Assembly: GCA_038087875.1 (NCBI GenBank)
Contig: CM075990.1
Span: forward strand, 15,688,001 to 15,752,000
DNA from: Malacoraja senta
Taxonomy: Eukaryota
Reading direction: 5' to 3'
Length of the DNA: 64,000 nucleotides
How positions within the stretch are numbered: the stretch's first letter is position 1; every line of letters starts with the position of its first letter. The notes under the pieces were generated by a model that saw only the letters and a program-made list of their open reading frames with translations, had not been told where the DNA came from and ran no database searches. The translations under genes were made by a program, and so were the position numbers. Shown here piece by piece: positions 215 to 38,496 of this stretch.

Positions 215-1186
215 CATTAACATGCAGGTAGGCTTTCAGCTTCAGACACCAGATCAGCCACTGGTTGATAGAAATGCAACTTGCCCAGTAACTTAATGAA
301 ATGGTGTTCCTTTAAGTACATTAATTGATGGCTATCAACTAAGCTGAAACAAAAGTGTGAGAGGAAACATGTTGCTTCCTGTGATGGATGGCCAGTTCAC
401 TTCAAACTAATGCATCCCACCGAAAACAATCACATTTGCCGTGTGCCTCAGTCACATCAAATGACGCAGATGTTGTTCTCCGGCTGGTCTGATCAATTTC
501 AGACCTCAGTGAGAGTCGATTTAATGGAACGTTACCATTACCTTTCTCTGAGGAATAAAACGTACTCCAGTCATCTGAAGGCTTCACTGATGAATTTACA
601 GTGTTGGCAGTCGGCAACTCCAACCCAAGGCAACCCTCCACACTTGCACTGTCAAACACCGGCTTCACTGGAATGGTTAATGGGTGTATCAGTTAATGGC
701 TTTGTCAGAATCCTGTTCTGTTTTGGTCTGAAGTGTGTGTATGAGATACTTATATGGCAGTAACATGACAGGTTAACTTACTGTGTCTGTATACTGCGGA
801 CGGTTTGATTGCAATCATGTATAGTCTTTTCACTGACTGGATAGCACGCAACAAACATGCTTTTCACTGTACCTCAGTGCACATGACAGTAATAAATTAA
901 ATCAAACTACTGGACTAGAAGCCAAAGTTCTGAACTAGTGCATCACAGACGAGTTCAAATCCAACCACAGATATTGAGGAGTATAAAGTTAGGTAATTTA
1001 TTAAATCTGGAACTTTAAGTGGCAGGAATGAAGTGACTGGATTTTTCAGAAACATCCATCTGGCGCACTCTATTTGAAAGTCAGCCATCCTGATTGGGTG
1101 TGGCCTATGTTACACCAGACCAATGTGGGCCGACACTGAACCGACTCTCCAAATCATGGCATTGTCACTGACATCCATATTCTGTG

Positions 1187-1314
1187 TAGGAAGGAACTGC
1201 AGATGCTGGTTTAAACCGAAGAATGACACAAAAAGCTGGAGTAACTCAGCGGGTTAGGCAGCATCTCTGGGGAAAAGGAATAGGTGACGTTTCGGTCGAG
1301 ACCCTTCTTCAGAC
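1187..1314 (-). mobile_element. PLE pseudo-LTR copy with hammerhead-like motif
   Basis: Reverse complement reads gtctgaagaagggtctcgaccgaaacgtcacc...gcatctgcagttccttccta, matching the PLE 3' end at 50800-50932. Confidence 0.8.
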
Positions 1315-2128
1315 ACATATTCTTCAGATCACATATTCTGTATTCAGACAGCTAAAAACATTGGAACCCAGGTCAGAGCAGCATGGAAATAAAAGACCGA
1401 ATGTCCGTAAATCTTAAGACCCTGGTGAATCCTCAGCTTCCCATCCCCACTAGATGCCATGTCTCTTTATGCCAGGAACAAACCATCCAAACTCTTCAGC
1501 TTCACATGTGGCCAAAGGAGCATGTTTTTTTATTATCACTGAGGATATTTGCTTCAAATCGTAGCCTGGGTTGGTTGCTAAGAGATTGGCCCTCGCTGCT
1601 GAAAGTGAAGGAAGTATCTAGTGCTCTCTGTCACCTGGACATCCCCTCCTCAAATGTTGATCAGATGCCAGACATCTGTTCAAGGAAAGCCCTGGCAGTG
1701 GCGTCTGAACAATGTTAGCTGATTAGCCGATCAAACTGAAGAGTTCTCACAGAGAGCAAACCAGAAATAGAAAATCACAAATAAAGCCAAATCACGACAA
1801 GAACATACTCAGTGTAAAGATAGAAGATTGTAGTGTGTTCAAGGTTCTCCTGAACAGGCCTGTCAAACTGAGGATTATCATCACCCATTTGCTTAAGTAA
1901 ACACAACCATTATTTGTAACAAAAGGATCCTGACCCGAAACGTTGCCAATCCATTCCCTCCACATTATTCCCTTTATCATGCATCTGTTCACTGTGAATG
2001 GCTGGATTGTAATCATGTATTGCCTTTCCGCTGACTGGTTAGCACGCAACAACAGCTTTTCACTGTACCTCGGTACAATTGACAATAAGCAAAACTAAAC
2101 ACAGATCCCGCTGAGTTACTCCAGCTCT

Positions 2129-2182
2129 GGGGTGGGAGATTGCAACCTTCATGTGGTCCACCCTGTTTTGACGAATGCAATC
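2129..2182 (+). ncRNA. Predicted minimal HDV-like self-cleaving ribozyme
   Basis: P1 ggggtgg 2129-2135 / ccaccct 2158-2164 (G1-U wobble). P2 gattgca 2138-2144 / tgcaatc 2176-2182. P3 acc/ggt, L3 ttcatgt, G2165 for P1.1, J4/2 cgaa with candidate catalytic C2172. Confidence 0.8.
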
Positions 2183-2273
2183 AACCTGGCGTGCACAAAC
2201 AGAAGATCAAACAGAACAAGTTGTCTTACAACTATAGGCTGTGCACGCCAAACACAAGAAGAAGAAGAAGAAG
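2129..2273 (+). mobile_element. Short non-autonomous retroposon with HDV-like ribozyme head and (AAG)n tail, copy 1
   Basis: 11-bp TSD actccagctct (2118-2128, 2274-2284) and (aag)6 tail. Homologous to 6365-6501 and 36655-36791. Inserted into a PLE pLTR fragment. Confidence 0.9.
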
Positions 2274-3473
2274 ACTCCAGCTCTTTGTGATTTACTCAAG
2301 GTTTCAGCATCCGTAGTTCCTTGTGTCTCCCTTTTATTTATTTATTCAGAATTCTATCAAACTGCAAGTGTGGCACCAAATACAAGAGTGTAAGAAACAG
2401 GACCAGGTCACACTACCCGTCAAGCCTGCCCTGTTGTTCATCAGCATATTCAGCGATCATCTTCCTCAACACCATCTCCCAGCATCACTCTCATAACCCA
2501 CTATGCCCAGGTATCCACTACTGTCGGTTATGAATGAATGACCGAGTTTGCATTGTCCTCCGGGCTAGATAATTCCAGAGGGAGAGACAGATACTGAGCA
2601 GCACCCAAAATACTGGAGGAACTCATCAATGTGTAGAAGGGTCCCGACCCAAAACAACAGCAGTCTGGAGAAGAGTCCCGACCCCAAACATCATCAGTCG
2701 GTAGAAGGGTCCCGACCCAAAACGTCGCCTGTCCATTCCTTCCACAGATGCCACCTGACCCACTAAGTTTCTCCTGTACTTTGTGTTCTGGTCGACATAA
2801 CTCTACAGGCTCACCATCCAAGTGAAGACATTTCTTCTCATCTTATTCCTCAACAGCCTATCCCTCATCATCTATTTGTACACCCAGTCCTAGACTTCCC
2901 AGACAGAGAACCCCCCCCCTGTGACCAGCTTGTCAACCCTTGAATTTACAGCAGCAATTCCAGAATCTTGGAAGAGCATCTACTGAAGCCATCTCTTGCA
3001 AAGCTCTGGGATATACATCCTTGGTATTTATCAACCTTCAAGCTTTTCAACATCTTCAGCAATATTTTGTTACAAATACTAAGCTCATTATCACTGCTCC
3101 ATTGATTCTCTTATATATCTGGAAGATATTTGTGCCTCCTTCCATGAAAGCTTACACAAAATAACTGTGTGATTTCTCTATCATTTCTTTATTCCTCTTA
3201 TAAATTCACCTGCACCAAAGATGCCAAATTTACCCTCTCTAGACCTATTCTTGTTACAGATCTATCAAAGCTCTCACAGTCTGTTTTTATGTTTCCCACA
3301 AGTCTACTTTAATGTTCTTTCTTCCTCAGTTACTTGATCCTTCTCTGCTAATGTCTAAAATATTGTCCAAACCCAGGCCTTTTTGTATTTCTGACAACTC
3401 TACAAGCCTTTACTTTTGATGTAATACTACCTTTAATTTCACAGGTCAGCCACAGAAAATTACTTTTCCTTTG

Positions 3474-3898
3474 TTTTAGCTTTAGAGATACAGCATGGAA
3501 ACAGGCCCTTCAGCATACCAAGTCCACGCCGACCAGCAATCACTCTTACACTAGTTCTATCCTGCACACTAGTGACAATTTACAGAAGCCAATTAACCTA
3601 CAGACCTGCACGTTGTTGGAATATGGGATGAAACCAGAGCACCCGGAGAACAGGGAGAACGTGGTCACAGGGAGAACGTTCAAACTCTGTACAGACTAGA
3701 TCCAGTCAGGAAGAAGGATTTCGGCCCGAAACGTTGCCTATTTCCTTCGCTCCATAGATGCTGCTGCACCTGCTGAGTTTCTCCAGTACTTTTGTCTACC
3801 TTCGATTTTCCATCATCTGCAGTTCCTTCTTAAACACAGGATTGAACACGGGTCTCTGGCCCTGTAAGGCAGCAACTCTACCGCTGCACCACTTTGCC
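3474..3898 (-). mobile_element. HE1-like tRNA-derived V-SINE interrupted by a PLE pLTR (~3710-3836)
   Basis: Reverse complement of the SINE at 52565-52878, with a pLTR subfamily-B insert (gaaacgttgcctatttccttcgctcc). Confidence 0.8.
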
Positions 3899-5344
3899 TT
3901 TTATGCTCTACATGCTAACAAATGCCTGGCCTAATTTCCTTTAAACATATGCTCTCAATCACTCTCAACCCACTTTCCTCTCTTACCTTAATTCCCGTTC
4001 CTTAGACTTCAGACCTTAGTTTCACATCATCCAATCTTTGAATTGATTATTTTGTATTTATGGTCATGGTCCCCAAAAGGCCTCTTGTTAACAAGAGTGT
4101 CAATCAATGCTTCCACATTGCACAAAGAGAGACGTGAAATAGCTTTTTCCCCAGTTGGTTCTTCAACATATCAGTCTGGATCAGTGTCCCCAATGCATTC
4201 ATGATTTTTATTTCCAGCATATTTGATTTTTTTGGTGTGTACATGAATTGAAGTCCTCCACAATTCCTGCATTATCCCTAGACATGCACACCTAATTTGC
4301 TGATTGATACCATGACCAATATTATTCAGTGGCCAATAAAAAACTCCTACAAATGTTTTCTGTCCATTGCTGTTTCTTAGCTCAATCCAAATTGTCAAGA
4401 TGATTTCTCACCATTACACCAGCCTTCTCTCTTATTAAAAGTGTTACACTCTACCCACCCCCTGTTCCTATCTACCTGTCCTTCCTCATTGTCAAATATC
4501 CTGGAATTTTTAGTTCCAAGTTTTGTTCATTCTGCATCGATGTTCCCATATTGGTAATTAGATCACACCCAGTCTGAAGAAGGGTTCCGACCTGAAACAT
4601 CACCTGTTCTTTTCCTCCAGAGTTGCTGCCTGACCCACTGAGTTACAGCTTTTTGTGTCTCCCTTCACACCCATTTAGTTCTTTTTATACCATTAATTCA
4701 TCTACTTTGTTGAGAATGCTGTGAGCATTCATAGAGAGTGTTTTTCATTTCATGATTTGAACATTTCATTGTACTTCACCAATTTTGGTTGCTTGACCTT
4801 GTTTCTGCTGTTTCACTTCTTCATAAGGTCATAATTGATAGGAGCAGAATTAGGCCATTTGGCCCATCAATACTCCGCCATTCAATCATGGCTGATCTAT
4901 CTCTCCCTCCTAACCCTATTCGCCTACCTTCTTCCCTCATAATCTATAAGATCATAAGTGATAGGAGCAGAATTAGGATTCCTTTTCCCATTACCCATTT
5001 GCTTTGTCTATCACCTCACCAGGTTCTATTTGTGGTTACCTTTCCCCAGCCAAGTGCATTTAAGCACTCCCTTATAGTCCAGGCAAACCCCATCCCTCCG
5101 GGAAAACCCCATCACTCTGCTCTTGTGTGACTATTCCGATTTGTAAATTGTCCCATCTGCCCCAGATATGGTTCTGTGCTTCCAAAGTCTCCACCCTCTC
5201 TCCTTCTTCAGACCTATTTCCTCACTCGTGGTCTTGCAAGTTATTCTCCCTTGAACTGCTTCTGAAATTCTCTGTTGAAAGCATTGATTGACTGTTTCCA
5301 TCTCCCCTGGAAACAGTGAAGTCCAGAAATGTAACTGCACTGTG

Positions 5345-5711: not shown

Positions 5712-6364
5712 AAAGATCCCCCTCAACTCCTCTTGGCATTGTTTAAAACTTTGCCTTCGAAAAGTGAACCAGCGGATAAAGCAATCTGATGGGATGATGC
5801 AGGAACCGTCGATTCCAGTCTCTCTTCATCTAAACCAGCCACAATCTGGTACATCAGTCTCAGCTTGTAAAAACTGAAATTCTACTTTGGAGATTAAAAA
5901 TGTAAATTAAACTATTTCCTCTGTTCAATCATCTATTGTGACTTTAATATATGCAAAGTACAGAATAAATGCATGCGGGTTCAACAATACATTTTCAAAG
6001 ATTCTGTGAATCAAGCAAGTAATGCGATTGGCTTTGTGAATTGAATTTCTATCACCTGACATTGTCATCGATTAATGGAAGATGGAAATTGAACAACCCA
6101 ATTAAAAAGGGACTACAGTGCCAAGAATAATTGATCTTGGTCCATTGAAAAAGATATTAGCCGCATTCTGTTGGATCACACGACCCATCCATCACCAAAG
6201 CAGCTCTGAATTTGGTTCCTTAGTCTGCACTTACTCAACCAGGGTAGAGGGCACTATAGTTGTCCTCAGTACCCTTTGAAGGAAGGGTTGAAGTAACATT
6301 CATCCAGTTCTATACAAACCAGCAAGTAGTGACTCTTGCTAAACCATCCATTCATTACAGATGG

Positions 6365-6501
6365 GCTTGGGGAGATTGCAACCTTCACGTGGTCCGCCCT
6401 GTTTCAACTAATGCAATCAACCCGACGTGCACAAGCAAGATCAAATAGAACAAGTTGACCTACAACTTTAGGCTGTGCACGCTATACGCAAGAAGAAGAA
6501 G
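6365..6501 (+). mobile_element. HDV-ribozyme-headed short retroposon, copy 2 (5' P1 strand degraded)
   Basis: gattgca-acc-ttcacgt-ggt-ccgccct-g-tttcaa-ctaa-tgcaatc at 6374-6418, (aag)4 tail, TSD att(a/g)cagatgg 6354-6364 and 6502-6512. Confidence 0.88.
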
Positions 6502-6714
6502 ATTGCAGATGGATCAAAATTGTGGAATAGTCAATCCCGTAGCATTGAGGGAAAGCCTTCACTGTACAGAATTGCAGTGGGTCGAGATGGCATCTCCCCA
6601 AGTTCACTTCAGATGGCTACCCTGCTCTGGTGATGCCAGTGTCTCGTGAACAGACAGAAGTTCAACAAACCATGGGATTCACAATAACACAGCCTGACCA
6701 CATTCCTCAGGTAA

Positions 6715-35280: not shown

Positions 35281-36654
35281 ATTCTTGCTGGGTCTTTTCC
35301 TCTAAGAATGCACCAATGCTGTGTGTACAGAGAAAGCTTTTCCTCATTTCTCTTCACCATGCATTTTCATCAAAAGGAAGCACTGACTCCAGTCTCAGAA
35401 GAAGGAGAGCACTGGCAGGTGTGAGGAGGTCTGATTGCAGCCCTGTAGGTTTGGGAGCAGAGAGCCAGTGGTGGAAAATCTGTTGCTGGTGGAAACAAAA
35501 CTGATTGAATAAAATATCAAGGCCAGATATTTCTCAAATCCAAGGGGATGCAAACATAATTAGAATCAGGATAAGTGGCAATCCCTAGTGGGGAAATAAT
35601 ATAATGGTAAGATGGAGGGAACAGTAATTGTTGAAGTTTTTTCCTGTTGGCTCAGTTATAAATAAATCTACTACACACGCTAATGAAAGCAGGTACTCAA
35701 GGGTATAGTATGTACTTTATCAATGGTTATCTCGAGTCCTTCTTTACATAAATGTCTTCCAATTCTTGCCTGTTCTGCACAACACCTAATGTATAAACCT
35801 CTCACTAGTCTCTCCATTATGAAGTCTGACACTTTATAAGCTTAATGTGCCCTTCCCCTTGCCTCAAGTGCTTCTTCAAGTCCTTCTTCCTCCCCCCAAC
35901 CCTGTGACTAGATGCATATTCAGTGCCCAAGTGTGTGCAGTTCAGGTCACCAGCTATGGCAAGGAAATATTTTTAAAAATGGTACTGGGACTCGAGGGAT
36001 GGAGAGGGTGGATAGGCTGGGCCTGGAGCATAAACGCATAGGGGTGGTATAGGGGGTTGTAAAATTGAGAGGGCAAAGATTAGCTAAACGGACACTGTCT
36101 TTTCTCTAGGATAGGAGAGTCTAAAACCAAAGGGCACCGATTTAAGGTTAGAGGGGAAAGTTTGAAAACAAACCCGATGTTGGAATGGTTGGAAAAAAGA
36201 TTCACGAGAATGTTTCCAGACCTACAATGTTTGAGTTATCAGCTGGACAGGATGATTATAAGCGGGACAGGTTGGGTATTTTTTCCCCTAGAGTGTAGGA
36301 GGCTGAGGGGAGATATTATAGAGATTTATAACATTGTGAGAGGCATAGATAAGGTGACTAGCCACAGTCTGTTTCCCAGGATAGAAGAGTCTAAAACTAA
36401 AGGACACAGATTTCAGTTTCGAGGGGGAAGTTTTAAAAAGAACCTGAGAAGCAAATGTTTCATATGGTGAGTGGTGGATATATGATGCCAGAGGAATCTG
36501 CAGAGGCAGGTACAATTACAATGATTCAGAGGTATTAAGACAGGTACATAGAAATGACAGATTTGGAGAGATACGGGCCAAACACAGATAAATGGGACTG
36601 GGTCAGGTGGACAACTTGGTCATCATGGACTAATTGGTTTGAAGGACCTGTTTC

Positions 36655-36708
36655 GGGGTGGGAGATTGCAACCTTCACGTGGTCCGCTCTGTTTCGACAA
36701 ATGCAATC
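36655..36708 (+). ncRNA. Predicted minimal HDV-like ribozyme
   Basis: P1 ggggtgg/ccgctct (three wobbles), P2 gattgca/tgcaatc, P3 acc/ggt, L3 ttcacgt, t-ttcg-a in place of P4, J4/2 caaa with C36698. Confidence 0.78.
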
Positions 36709-36791
36709 AACACAGCGAACACAATCAAGTAAGATCAAATAGAACAAGTTGTCCTTCAACTGCACACCATACACAAGAAGAAGAAGAAAAA
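36655..36791 (+). mobile_element. HDV-ribozyme-headed short retroposon, copy 3
   Basis: 14-bp TSD gaagg(a/g)cctgtttc (36641-36654, 36792-36805) and (aag)n tail. Confidence 0.9.
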
Positions 36792-38496
36792 GAAGGGCCT
36801 GTTTCTATGCTCTAATACCAAACAATTGGACTCTGGTGTATTTTTCTTTACACTAACTGTTTACATCTCATGATTACTTGTGTATGGCATGTATGGCATG
36901 ATCTGAGTTAATTGGATTGCATGCAAACAAAAAGCTTTTCAGTGTACCTAAGTGACAATAATATACAAAATACAACGTCATTAATTGTGCAGCCAACACT
37001 GGGCAAACAACAGCCAAGTTAAGGAGAGTTGCCGGGTCTATTCCCCAACAGATACTAGTCAACCATAAATCTATCATGCAGAGAATGTCTTTTATGTGCA
37101 ACTGGGTCCAAATTCTGGACTTAGAATCGTCCAGCAGTCTATGTTTTTCCCTTGCGTGAGAGTGTGTGCCATAAACTATTTTATTGCACTGAGTGTCCTA
37201 ATCTGGGCTATGATGTGATGACACACCAGTCAAGGTAGAGAACAAGAACCCCCCTCCCCCGATAGTGGTGGTATCTCAAATTAGAGGGCAAAGGCTTAAG
37301 ATAAAGGGTACGAGGTTCAGAGGGCTTTGAGGACATAACAGAGGGAACTAGATAAATATTACAAGAAACAACACTTGGAAAGACAGGTCGGAGTGAGTCG
37401 GGCCGAGGTCAGAACCGAGAGGTCGGTGTTGGGCCGCAGTGGACGGGCTGCGCTGCCGAGAACAAAGGGGGACCAGGCAGAGGGGGGTGGTGGGAGGGGG
37501 GGGGCAGGGGGGGATGTGCTTTTTGTAACTTTGTCGGCACCTTTGTGGCGACACTTAGAAAACAGGTGCCTTCGAGCCAGCACCGCCATTCAATATGATC
37601 ATGGCTGATCATCCAAAATCAGTACCCCGTTCCTGCTTTCTTCCCATATCCCTTGATTCCGTTAGACCCAAGAGCAATATCTAGCTCTCTCTTGAAAACA
37701 TCCATAGACTTTTGTGCACATTGTATGCATAAACAGAGAATTTCACTGTGCATTGGCACAAGTGACAATGAAGTATCATCATCATCATCAGCATTATCAC
37801 AGAAAGAAGGGGAACAAAAATGGCCAGCACATAGATGTTGGCCAAATGGCCTCCGCTTTGCTGCATTGAGCTGCCTTGCACACGCTCCCTCCATTCCAGT
37901 CGTGTTGCACAAACATCCTCCTGAATTCAACAGCGCTGTAAATTACAAACTAAAGTCAAGCCCAGTTGCTAAGTAACAGAAGGCACGTCCGGTGCAGTAG
38001 AGTTTGCAGTCTCTCCGCTCCGTCTGTGCCGCTCCGGATACAACTCACTGCATTTCCTTCCCTGACTATCCAGGCTCACCGATGCTCTGCCTTGTGTGAG
38101 TTATCAGCAAATGTCAGATTAGTTCCAAATAAATCACCCTACTTTTGGGCCACCTCTAACTGCCCTTGAGAAGGTGTTGGCACGTCCTCTGTGCGAAGGT
38201 AGCATTTTCAATCTATATATTTTTTAAAGATGATCATTGTAATTTTACAATGCAAACATCAATTACAGTGGAGCATGTTAGCTTTGGCAATCTTTAACCT
38301 TTATTTCACTCCAACTCTGCCAGATGCTCTGTGGTGACAAACATTCTCTGCATCTCCTCTTCCAAATTCCCAATCAGGCTGACAGTGAGCTACCACAATG
38401 TCATCAATCAAAACAAATTTAACCTAGAAAGGTGCCACTCTCTTAAACAGGAACATTAAAACTAGTAAAAAAAAGAATAAGAATCTAATTAAATTT

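Follow-up and report, generated by a model that had tools for sequence, protein, structure and literature searches.

The stretch analysed here, called the window throughout, comprises 64,000 nucleotides (nt) of the Malacoraja senta assembly GCA_038087875.1 (contig CM075990.1, positions 15,688,001 to 15,752,000, forward strand) and carries at positions 2129, 6365 and 36655 an element of ~140 nt that we named F0. The element consists of three modules, namely a 54-nt head, a body of ~75 nt and an (AAG)n tail, and its head is a putative minimal ribozyme of the hepatitis delta virus (HDV) type. A preliminary description of this DNA had reported three homologous copies, each bounded by target-site duplications (TSDs) and ending in an (AAG)n tail, and all of these were recovered at the positions given (Table 1); copies 2 and 3 share 87% (over 135 nt) and 80% identity, respectively, with copy 1. 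The structural elements that it had assigned to copies 1 and 3 were also present: (i) helix P1 (nt 1-7/30-36), which opens with G1-U36 at the predicted cleavage site, (ii) P2 (10-16/48-54), (iii) P3 (17-19/27-29), and (iv) G37, a 6-nt remnant of P4 and a joining strand J4/2 of the form C-N-A-A. The sequence UUCACGU claimed for loop L3 holds for copies 2 and 3 and for the family consensus but not for copy 1 (UUCAUGU), the head of which departs from the consensus by two CpG C-to-T changes, one in L3 and one in the P4 remnant (UUUUGA). The differences in P1 between copies 1 and 3 (U5-A32 versus U5-G32, and G3-C34 versus G3-U34) are as reported, and the changes are one-sided only. Copy 2 is damaged at its 5' end (GCTTGGGG instead of GGGGTGGG), so that P1 cannot form, and the 3' TSD of copy 3 overlaps the tail by 4 nt. 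Within the body lies an inner hairpin, AAGTTGT-CYT-ACAACTT, decayed to ACAACTA in copy 1; both body stems are present in the minimum free energy (MFE) fold of a consensus-like copy.

The size of the family was evaluated in the whole assembly, to which all genome-wide counts refer (1.94 Gb). With copy 1 as the query, 3,342 first-look candidates were retrieved, and the 40 that were scored were 94-100% identical to it; copy 3 retrieved 2,185 candidates (40 scored, 86-100% identical) and revealed a second sub-lineage in which G32 replaces A32 and the body is 9 nt longer. Exact head-body junctions numbered 3,955 and exact matches to the last 24 nt of F0 numbered 3,045, the reversed-pattern controls giving 0 in both cases. 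By the junction count the family has at least 3,955 members, in keeping with the high copy number that had been proposed from the window. Identical copies with identical flanks were observed on chromosome-scale and small unplaced contigs (L015/L019 and L066/L071); these are probably haplotigs or assembly duplicates, and each pair was counted once in the samples of unique copies.

That genomic 5' ends should be concentrated at G1 was a check set beforehand. Scripted calling found a TSD in 58 of 70 unique sampled F0 copies and none in the other 12. Relative to G1, the TSD ended at offset 0 in 32 copies (one of these being a mere 6-nt match), at +1 in 15 (an ambiguous class, as the base following the 3' repeat is also a G), at -1 in eight, at +3 in two and at -2 in one, and in 54 of the 58 the end lay no more than one base from G1. 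The duplications measure 8-15 bp. Overlap of the TSD with the AAG tail by at least 2 nt was seen in 25 of the 58 copies, which fits priming by a nicked target annealing to the AAG repeat. The anatomy of F0, its copy number and the position of its 5' ends at G1 are established by these data. The F0 insertions L063 and L070, whose TSDs differ, hit one and the same region in two copies of another long interspersed element (LINE), at points separated by 3 nt, a spacing that hints at a target-site preference.

The fold of the head was evaluated with a structural descriptor built from published architecture, which specified G1, a 7-bp P1, a J1/2 of 0-8 nt, a 7-bp P2, a 3-bp P3, a 7-nt L3 with C in third place, a G after P1, 0-40 nt replacing P4, and then C-N-R-A. 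On both strands of the window, the descriptor matched twice, at copies 1 and 3 only; copy 2 failed it. A total of 56 matches were obtained in 537,562 nt of sampled loci, every one of them an F0 head, with a few counted twice because some of the loci overlap; none was found in 20 Mb of first-order Markov random sequence. All of the descriptor features are kept in 51 of 69 unique F0 copies, and the putative catalytic residue, C44, is conserved in 94 of the 100 junction matches listed first. When the head is folded alone, the MFE structure consists of P1 and P3, and that of the full RNA includes P2 along with the two nested body stems. Head variants at a frequency of 10% or more, as judged from an RNA-seq run and three contig sets (other organisms), occur only at positions 8 (in J1/2), 32 (U-A versus U-G), 42 (in the P4 remnant), 44 and 45 (the free N of J4/2); the variant at position 44 is C-to-T within a CpG and amounts to about 7-13%. 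Among the first 100 junctions, both decay products of the CpG in the P4 remnant are common (~11 TG and ~15 CA), whereas at the C44-G45 CpG T44 is rare (5/100) and A45 is common. This contrast is the pattern expected if position-45 variants spread from active source copies and T44 variants do not.

Consensus-like copies were further scanned against the 4,227 families of Rfam at a relaxed threshold (E value of up to 10). The two best matches of L019 were HDV-F-prausnitzii (15.9 bits) and CPEB3_ribozyme (14.3 bits), and L041 matched the same two models (14.4 and 11.5 bits) and no other family. The register in both copies is G1 to C54 for HDV-F-prausnitzii, and the alignment to CPEB3_ribozyme adds a short upstream leader. 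The head of copy 3 weakly matched HDV-F-prausnitzii in the same register (12.2 bits, E value 5.5). A search of the whole genome with the CPEB3 model, RF00622, yielded 59 scored places, of which 39 exceeded the 35-bit cut-off (best, 64.2 bits), and all seven loci that were re-scanned were confirmed at 37-64 bits. Homologues in the same genome thus lie above the Rfam threshold, and F0 itself lies below it. The F0 head belongs to a wider set of related, CPEB3-like ribozyme heads in this genome, the other members of which we sorted into families F1 to F5 (Table 1).

F1 is an RTE-like LINE of ~3.15 kb, so classified by architecture and not by a tree, which begins with a full-size ribozyme of ~72 nt that reaches up to 64 bits against RF00622. 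A single long open reading frame (ORF), containing Exo_endo_phos (33 bits) and RVT_1 (113 bits) domains, opens ~10 nt past the ribozyme, and ~30 nt separate the ribozyme from the first ATG; in both of the copies whose end was examined, the element closes with ...ACGAAAA[G/T]AAGAAGAAG and thus has an (AAG)n tail. F2 resembles a short interspersed element (SINE) of ~190 nt and has an HDV-like head without P4, which scores 35-44 bits on RF00622. Between the linkers replacing P4 in F2 (GUUUCCAC) and in F0 (GUUUCGAC) there is a difference of one base, and the P1 of F2 has six pairs and lacks the usual G-U at the cut site. The TSD stops immediately before the first G in 3/3 F2 copies; the element ends with ...CGAUAAGAAG, and its 3' end, ...CGATAAGAAG, resembles that of F1. 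The heads of F3, F4 and F5 are full-size ribozymes, and the part common to the copies of each is the ribozyme plus ~30-45 nt only; F5 copies diverge past this point as though the unit were a ~95-nt element. Decayed as it is, F4 matches the Rfam CPEB3 consensus base for base over most of P2, P3/L3, P4 and J4/2 (51.4 bits for L091), and it is the closest relative of the mammalian CPEB3 ribozyme among the families sampled here.

Table 1. Coordinates of the three F0 copies in the window and loci sampled for the related families
Feature	Position or locus	Strand	Remarks
Copy 1, whole element	2129-2273	+	Flanked by exact 11-nt TSDs
Copy 1, 5' TSD ACTCCAGCTCT	2118-2128	+	Exact repeat at 2274-2284; last base directly before G1
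Copy 1, head	2129-2182	+	54 nt; putative minimal HDV-like ribozyme; descriptor match
Copy 1, P1	2129-2135/2158-2164	+	Descriptor match
Copy 1, J1/2	2136-2137	+	Descriptor match
Copy 1, P2	2138-2144/2176-2182	+	Descriptor match
Copy 1, P3	2145-2147/2155-2157	+	
Copy 1, L3	2148-2154	+	
Copy 1, G37	2165	+	
Copy 1, P4 remnant	2166-2171	+	
Copy 1, J4/2	2172-2175	+	Putative catalytic C at 2172
Copy 1, body	2183-2255	+	Outer stem GGCGTGCAC/GTGCACGCC around inner hairpin, short linker, then tail
Copy 1, (AAG)6 tail	2256-2273	+	
Copy 1, 3' TSD	2274-2284	+	
Copy 2, 5' TSD ATTACAGATGG	6354-6364	+	11 nt; 3' repeat 6502-6512, one mismatch
Copy 2, whole element	6365-6501	+	J4/2 CUAA; (AAG)4 tail 6490-6501
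Copy 3, 5' TSD GAAGGACCTGTTTC	36641-36654	+	14 nt; 3' repeat 36792-36805, one mismatch
Copy 3, whole element	36655-36795	+	
Copy 3, head	36655-36708	+	HDV-like fold intact; two P1 wobble pairs; J4/2 CAAA
Copy 3, body and (AAG)n tail	36709-36795	+	Tail 36775-36795 with one AAA unit
F1 loci	L084-L086, L097, L099, L100		L085+L114 = G000:C1:217550385-217555000
F2 loci	L089, L090, L093, L102, L106-L113		
F3 loci	L087, L094, L095		
F4 loci	L088, L091, L096, L101, L104		
F5 loci	L092, L098, L103, L105, L115-L117		

Since changes within F0 are one-sided only, compensatory evidence was sought in the other families. Ten heads were aligned (three of F0, two each of F1, F2 and F3, and one of F5); L092, in which MAFFT shifted P1 by one column, and the decayed F4 copies were left out. 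L3, C22-G37, C44, A46 and A47 are invariant across the ten heads. Pairing was found in 98.0% of 204 pair cells, compared with 77.0 +/- 2.0% in shuffles, none of 500 of which reached 98.0%, a percentage that is biased towards the fold, the non-F0 heads having been picked with structure-aware tools. Sliding the partner columns as a control lowered pairing to 37-46%, and the covariation score was 0.573 versus 0.196. Across the five families, 13 of 23 pairs have changed on both sides, and between F0 and the others six of the seven P2 pairs as well as parts of P1 and P3 differ, always in compensated fashion. This between-family compensation is anchored on the invariant columns and is free of the bias introduced by structure-aware selection. 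Covariation, for which the preliminary description had proposed a test across copies, was absent within F0 and present across families. The nested double pseudoknot that it had drawn for the 54-nt head, in which P2 crosses P1, P3 is enclosed by P1 and P1.1 links L3 with the base that follows P1, is supported by the descriptor matches, the helices of the MFE folds and the compensated pairs; a fold that covaries with Rfam-significant relatives is established.

A chance resemblance to an HDV-like ribozyme in an unrelated repeat is effectively refuted by these data. F0 by itself remains under the Rfam thresholds and the nested-fold z-score of its head is not significant, as such a resemblance would have it; against it stand the descriptor counts, which were 0 for 20 Mb of random sequence and 0 outside F0 for 0.54 Mb of real sequence, the column-by-column alignment of the F0 head with Rfam-significant ribozymes of the same genome, the invariance of L3, C22-G37 and C44-A46-A47, and the compensated helices. 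On this sequence evidence, the F0 head is a real, probably active, minimal HDV-like ribozyme without P4.

No hallmarks of RNA polymerase III (Pol III) transcription were found in F0, as had been claimed for tRNA and A/B-box signals: ARAGORN detected 0 tRNAs in three F0 loci, the best A and B boxes agreed at six of nine positions each and were equalled in 85% and 67% of shuffles, respectively, and none of the tRNA, 5S and 7SL models of Rfam matched F0 copies at an E value of up to 10. Transcripts were examined in one raw poly(A) RNA-seq run, about 6% of which was read. Reads on F0 numbered 560, of which 556 cover the element only in part, and a share of 0.97 extends into unlike flanking sequence. 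These observations show that F0 is transcribed within longer RNAs, as a read-through model needs. The strand classes of the reads were unequal at L019:1400-1750, and the inequality was greater over the 3' half of F0 (~120-170 versus 35-70), which may be an alignment effect of a sub-lineage indel or a real strand bias.

Taken together, we consider it likely that F0 is a promoter-less retroposon: its own minimal HDV-like ribozyme would free its RNA at G1, and a reverse transcriptase (RT) of the RTE-like kind would copy that RNA via the (AAG)n tail. Sense-oriented copies inside host transcription units would be transcribed by read-through, with no promoter of their own, and the predicted ribozyme would cut just 5' of G1 and so fix the 5' end of the F0 RNA. 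HDV-like ribozymes are cut at the nucleotide that opens P1 (PMC4908430). A LINE RT would then copy this RNA by target-primed reverse transcription, the target annealing to the AAG repeat, and the enzyme would most likely be that of F1, the RTE-like LINE, which has a related ribozyme at its 5' end and an (AAG)n tail like that of F0. The predicted product is a full-length insertion starting from G1 and flanked by 8-15-bp TSDs. Three steps of this model are inferences, namely that F0 is catalytic, that its 5' end is set by cleavage rather than by transcription initiation, and that F1 is the partner.

Several findings weigh against this proposal. Rfam at the gathering level gave no match in the window and copy 1 gave no HDV-type match even at an E value of up to 10, the scores of F0 (11.5-15.9 bits) being far under the gathering scores of RF00622 and RF02682 (35 and 44, respectively). 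Helix variation within F0 is confined to one-sided changes of the type U-A versus U-G, and its J1/2 has 2 nt, short spacers having slowed another HDV-like ribozyme (PMC4908430). At least 209 RNA reads run from upstream sequence over the predicted cut site, and molecule starts did not pile up at G1 or any other F0 position in the poly(A) run, a test weakened by poly(A) selection, loss of short RNA, unknown strandedness and the pooling of thousands of copies; cleaved molecules are hence not prominent in that RNA. Finally, sharp 5' ends at G1 would be equally expected from a fixed transcription start, and genome pattern filters for the start of the F0 body and for its last 21 nt found no other element that shares either of them.

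Much of this would also be accounted for if the head were a relic of an HDV-like ribozyme that no longer cleaves, its activity abolished by the loss of P4 and the 2-nt J1/2, and if the 5' end were set by a fixed transcription start. The promoter would then be either internal to the head or body, and so far unrecognised, or located upstream of a small number of master loci. The scores below the Rfam thresholds, the many junction-spanning reads without a start pile-up and the 5' ends at G1, which fit either model, are all compatible with a relic, and in L1Tc the first 77 nt (Pr77) are both promoter and ribozyme (PMC3383444, PMC3185411). We nevertheless judge it improbable: (i) A/B-box and tRNA likeness do not exceed those of shuffles, (ii) all three sub-lineages (J4/2 CGAA, CUAA or CAAA; A32 or G32) keep every core feature, (iii) common head variants are confined to the five positions listed above, (iv) HDV-like ribozymes without P4 are active elsewhere (10.1101/2023.06.13.544163), and (v) F2 keeps the P4-less linker together with fully compensated P1, P2 and P3.

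As to the partner of F0, an RTE-type LINE had been proposed, and F1, an RTE-like LINE that ends in (AAG)n and starts with a homologous ribozyme, does exist, but no LINE was found to share the F0 body or its last 21 nt; the ribozyme likeness and the tail repeat are hence what the assignment of a partner depends on. F1 is a plausible, and our best, candidate, as no other autonomous element among those sampled ends in an (AAG)n tail. The 3' ends of F0 and F1 resemble each other only in this repeat and in a loose A-Y-A-C-G-M-A motif before it, and the nested stems of F0, which resemble a LINE 3'-untranslated region (UTR) recognition hairpin, have no counterpart in the F1 copy examined. Few LINE families of the genome were sampled. 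These points would suit mobilisation by a LINE other than an RTE-like one, be it CR1-like, extinct or unsampled, with the shared (AAG)n tail a coincidence. We regard this as the less likely course, considering that the filters for the body start and the last 21 nt returned only F0 variants (11 matches, all deletion variants, and 21 matches, all variant-like), that F1 alone among the sampled autonomous elements has the tail, and that the CR1-like LINE encountered in this work ends in (ATATGGTT)n.

This CR1-like LINE was met in tracing what follows the F0 head. The head is followed by non-F0 sequence in at most five places, as compared with the 3,955 canonical junctions. Apart from indel or point variants of F0, genome patterns aimed at a LINE with the F0 head or tail returned three distinct loci with other sequence after the head, namely L075, L076 (= L071) and L077. 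No TSD was found at L076 or L077. L075 (G000:C1:20849000-20857000, 545-3940) consists of the head, 3.25 kb of the CR1-like LINE and 88 nt of F0 body and tail (89% identity), all within one 10-nt TSD. The LINE was rejected as a parent or tail donor of F0: the L075 junction is unique in the genome, and in 3/3 further copies of the LINE the match stops exactly at the F0-like part and the copies end in (ATATGGTT)n, so that L075 is explained by the insertion of a 5'-truncated LINE into an F0 copy, directly after the ribozyme. No F0 head was found within 2.2 kb upstream of six copies of this LINE, three of which reach the 80-bp monomer array. The LINE is young, with copies 97-98% identical (L075, L078-L083 and L118-L121), and has a 5' UTR of 80-bp tandem monomers, an ORF1 with a weak GDSL-esterase match (17.6 bits, below the cut-off), an ORF2 with apurinic/apyrimidinic endonuclease (APE) and RT domains, and the (ATATGGTT)n tail. 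Young CR1-like and RTE-like LINE families (97-98% identity between copies) would, on general grounds, speak against a mammalian genome. A very abundant repeat (...CATAGAAAATAGGTGCAGGAG...GGCCATTC...) was also observed in the flanks of L012, L020, L023, L077 and L080; read as its reverse complement, it corresponds to the 3' end of a second family of CR1-like LINEs, the tail of which is a (ATGTTTCT)-type repeat.

Non-autonomous elements with HDV-like heads (NARTc and the R2 SIDEs) and ribozymes at LINE 5' ends are already known. New here are a P4-less ribozyme form within a repeat of an animal, its copy number, the finding of no LINE with the same head or body, and sister families that, by sequence, closely resemble the CPEB3 ribozyme. 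A search of the full-text literature, which does not cover Dfam and Repbase, yielded no description of F0 or of CPEB3-type ribozymes in non-mammalian retrotransposons. As a rule, a retroposon has to carry its promoter along, and F0 seems to have swapped its promoter for 54 nt of predicted catalytic RNA; such an exchange would imply that it spreads only from copies in transcribed DNA, a different economy of SINE amplification. Sense-oriented intronic copies could also cut host pre-mRNAs, and F0 would be a natural, high-copy, P4-less HDV-like ribozyme in an animal, a class that so far comes from metagenomes and phages. More tentatively, and with somewhat less than even confidence, we suggest that CPEB3-type ribozymes did not arise in mammals but are the 5' heads of a living retroelement superfamily, which would comprise the RTE-like LINE F1, two or more SINE-like families whose heads lack P4, and others besides, and that the mammalian CPEB3 ribozyme is an exapted head. 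If so, F0 to F5 would be its missing outgroups, whereby CPEB3-type heads in one genome could make the origin of that ribozyme testable, and among SINE-like families F0 would be the first to have exchanged the Pol III promoter head for a minimal ribozyme that did not come from its partner LINE.

Canonical SINEs share with F0 their size, TSDs, a LINE-type simple-repeat tail and a high copy number; they differ in possessing a Pol III head derived from tRNA, 7SL or 5S RNA, in place of which F0 has a ribozyme-like head, no Pol III-type head having been found. NARTc of Trypanosoma cruzi, the companion of L1Tc, is like F0 a short non-autonomous retroposon whose first tens of nt are an HDV-like ribozyme, and this head (Pr77, L1TcRz) frees the RNA from co-transcripts (PMC3185411, PMC3383444, PMC4035085). 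The head of NARTc is also that of its LINE and serves as a promoter as well, whereas for F0 no LINE with the same head was found (at most five non-F0 continuations), no promoter signal was detected, and the ribozyme lacks P4. The R2 SIDEs of Drosophila are likewise non-autonomous and keep a 5' HDV-like ribozyme along with a 3' end recognised by the LINE protein (PMC3414825). They are plain deletions of R2 located in ribosomal DNA; F0 is dispersed in thousands of copies, its body matches no sampled LINE, and its ends are not collinear with any one sampled parent, contrary to an origin by internal deletion of a LINE.

Ribozymes of the HDV type are reportedly found at the 5' ends of RTE-clade and other LINEs, as described by Ruminski et al. 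in 2011. F1 fits this RTE-clade pattern of a 5'-terminal ribozyme followed by a single APE-RT ORF, and the F0 head is a relative of the F1 ribozyme; unlike those LINEs, F0 is non-coding and its ribozyme is devoid of P4. The 2011 work on LINE 5' ribozymes is cited in PMC7761336 and PMC8256844. The consensus of the CPEB3 ribozyme model (RF00622) has in common with F0, by cmscan, the motifs UUCACGU, CCCUGU and CGAAU, the first of which confirms the identity of L3 with that of the mammalian ribozyme that had been noted in the preliminary description, and F0 has U20, C22 and G25 at positions discussed for CPEB3 (PMC4836649). CPEB3 is, however, a single intronic copy with a full P4, which, according to a 2021 study, had not been detected beyond mammals (PMC8233481); F0 is the head of a repeat, without P4 and with other letters in P1, P2 and P3, and reaches 11.5-14.3 bits against the cut-off of 35. 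Similar to F0 in form are the minimal HDV-like ribozymes drz-Mtgn and theta, double pseudoknots of ~50-55 nt without P4 and with the catalytic C first in J4/2, of which the theta ribozymes cleave in vitro (10.1101/2023.06.13.544163). Those ribozymes come from metagenomes and gut phages, where they process tRNA trailers, whereas F0 is found in an animal genome with its predicted ribozyme at the 5' end of a retroposon.

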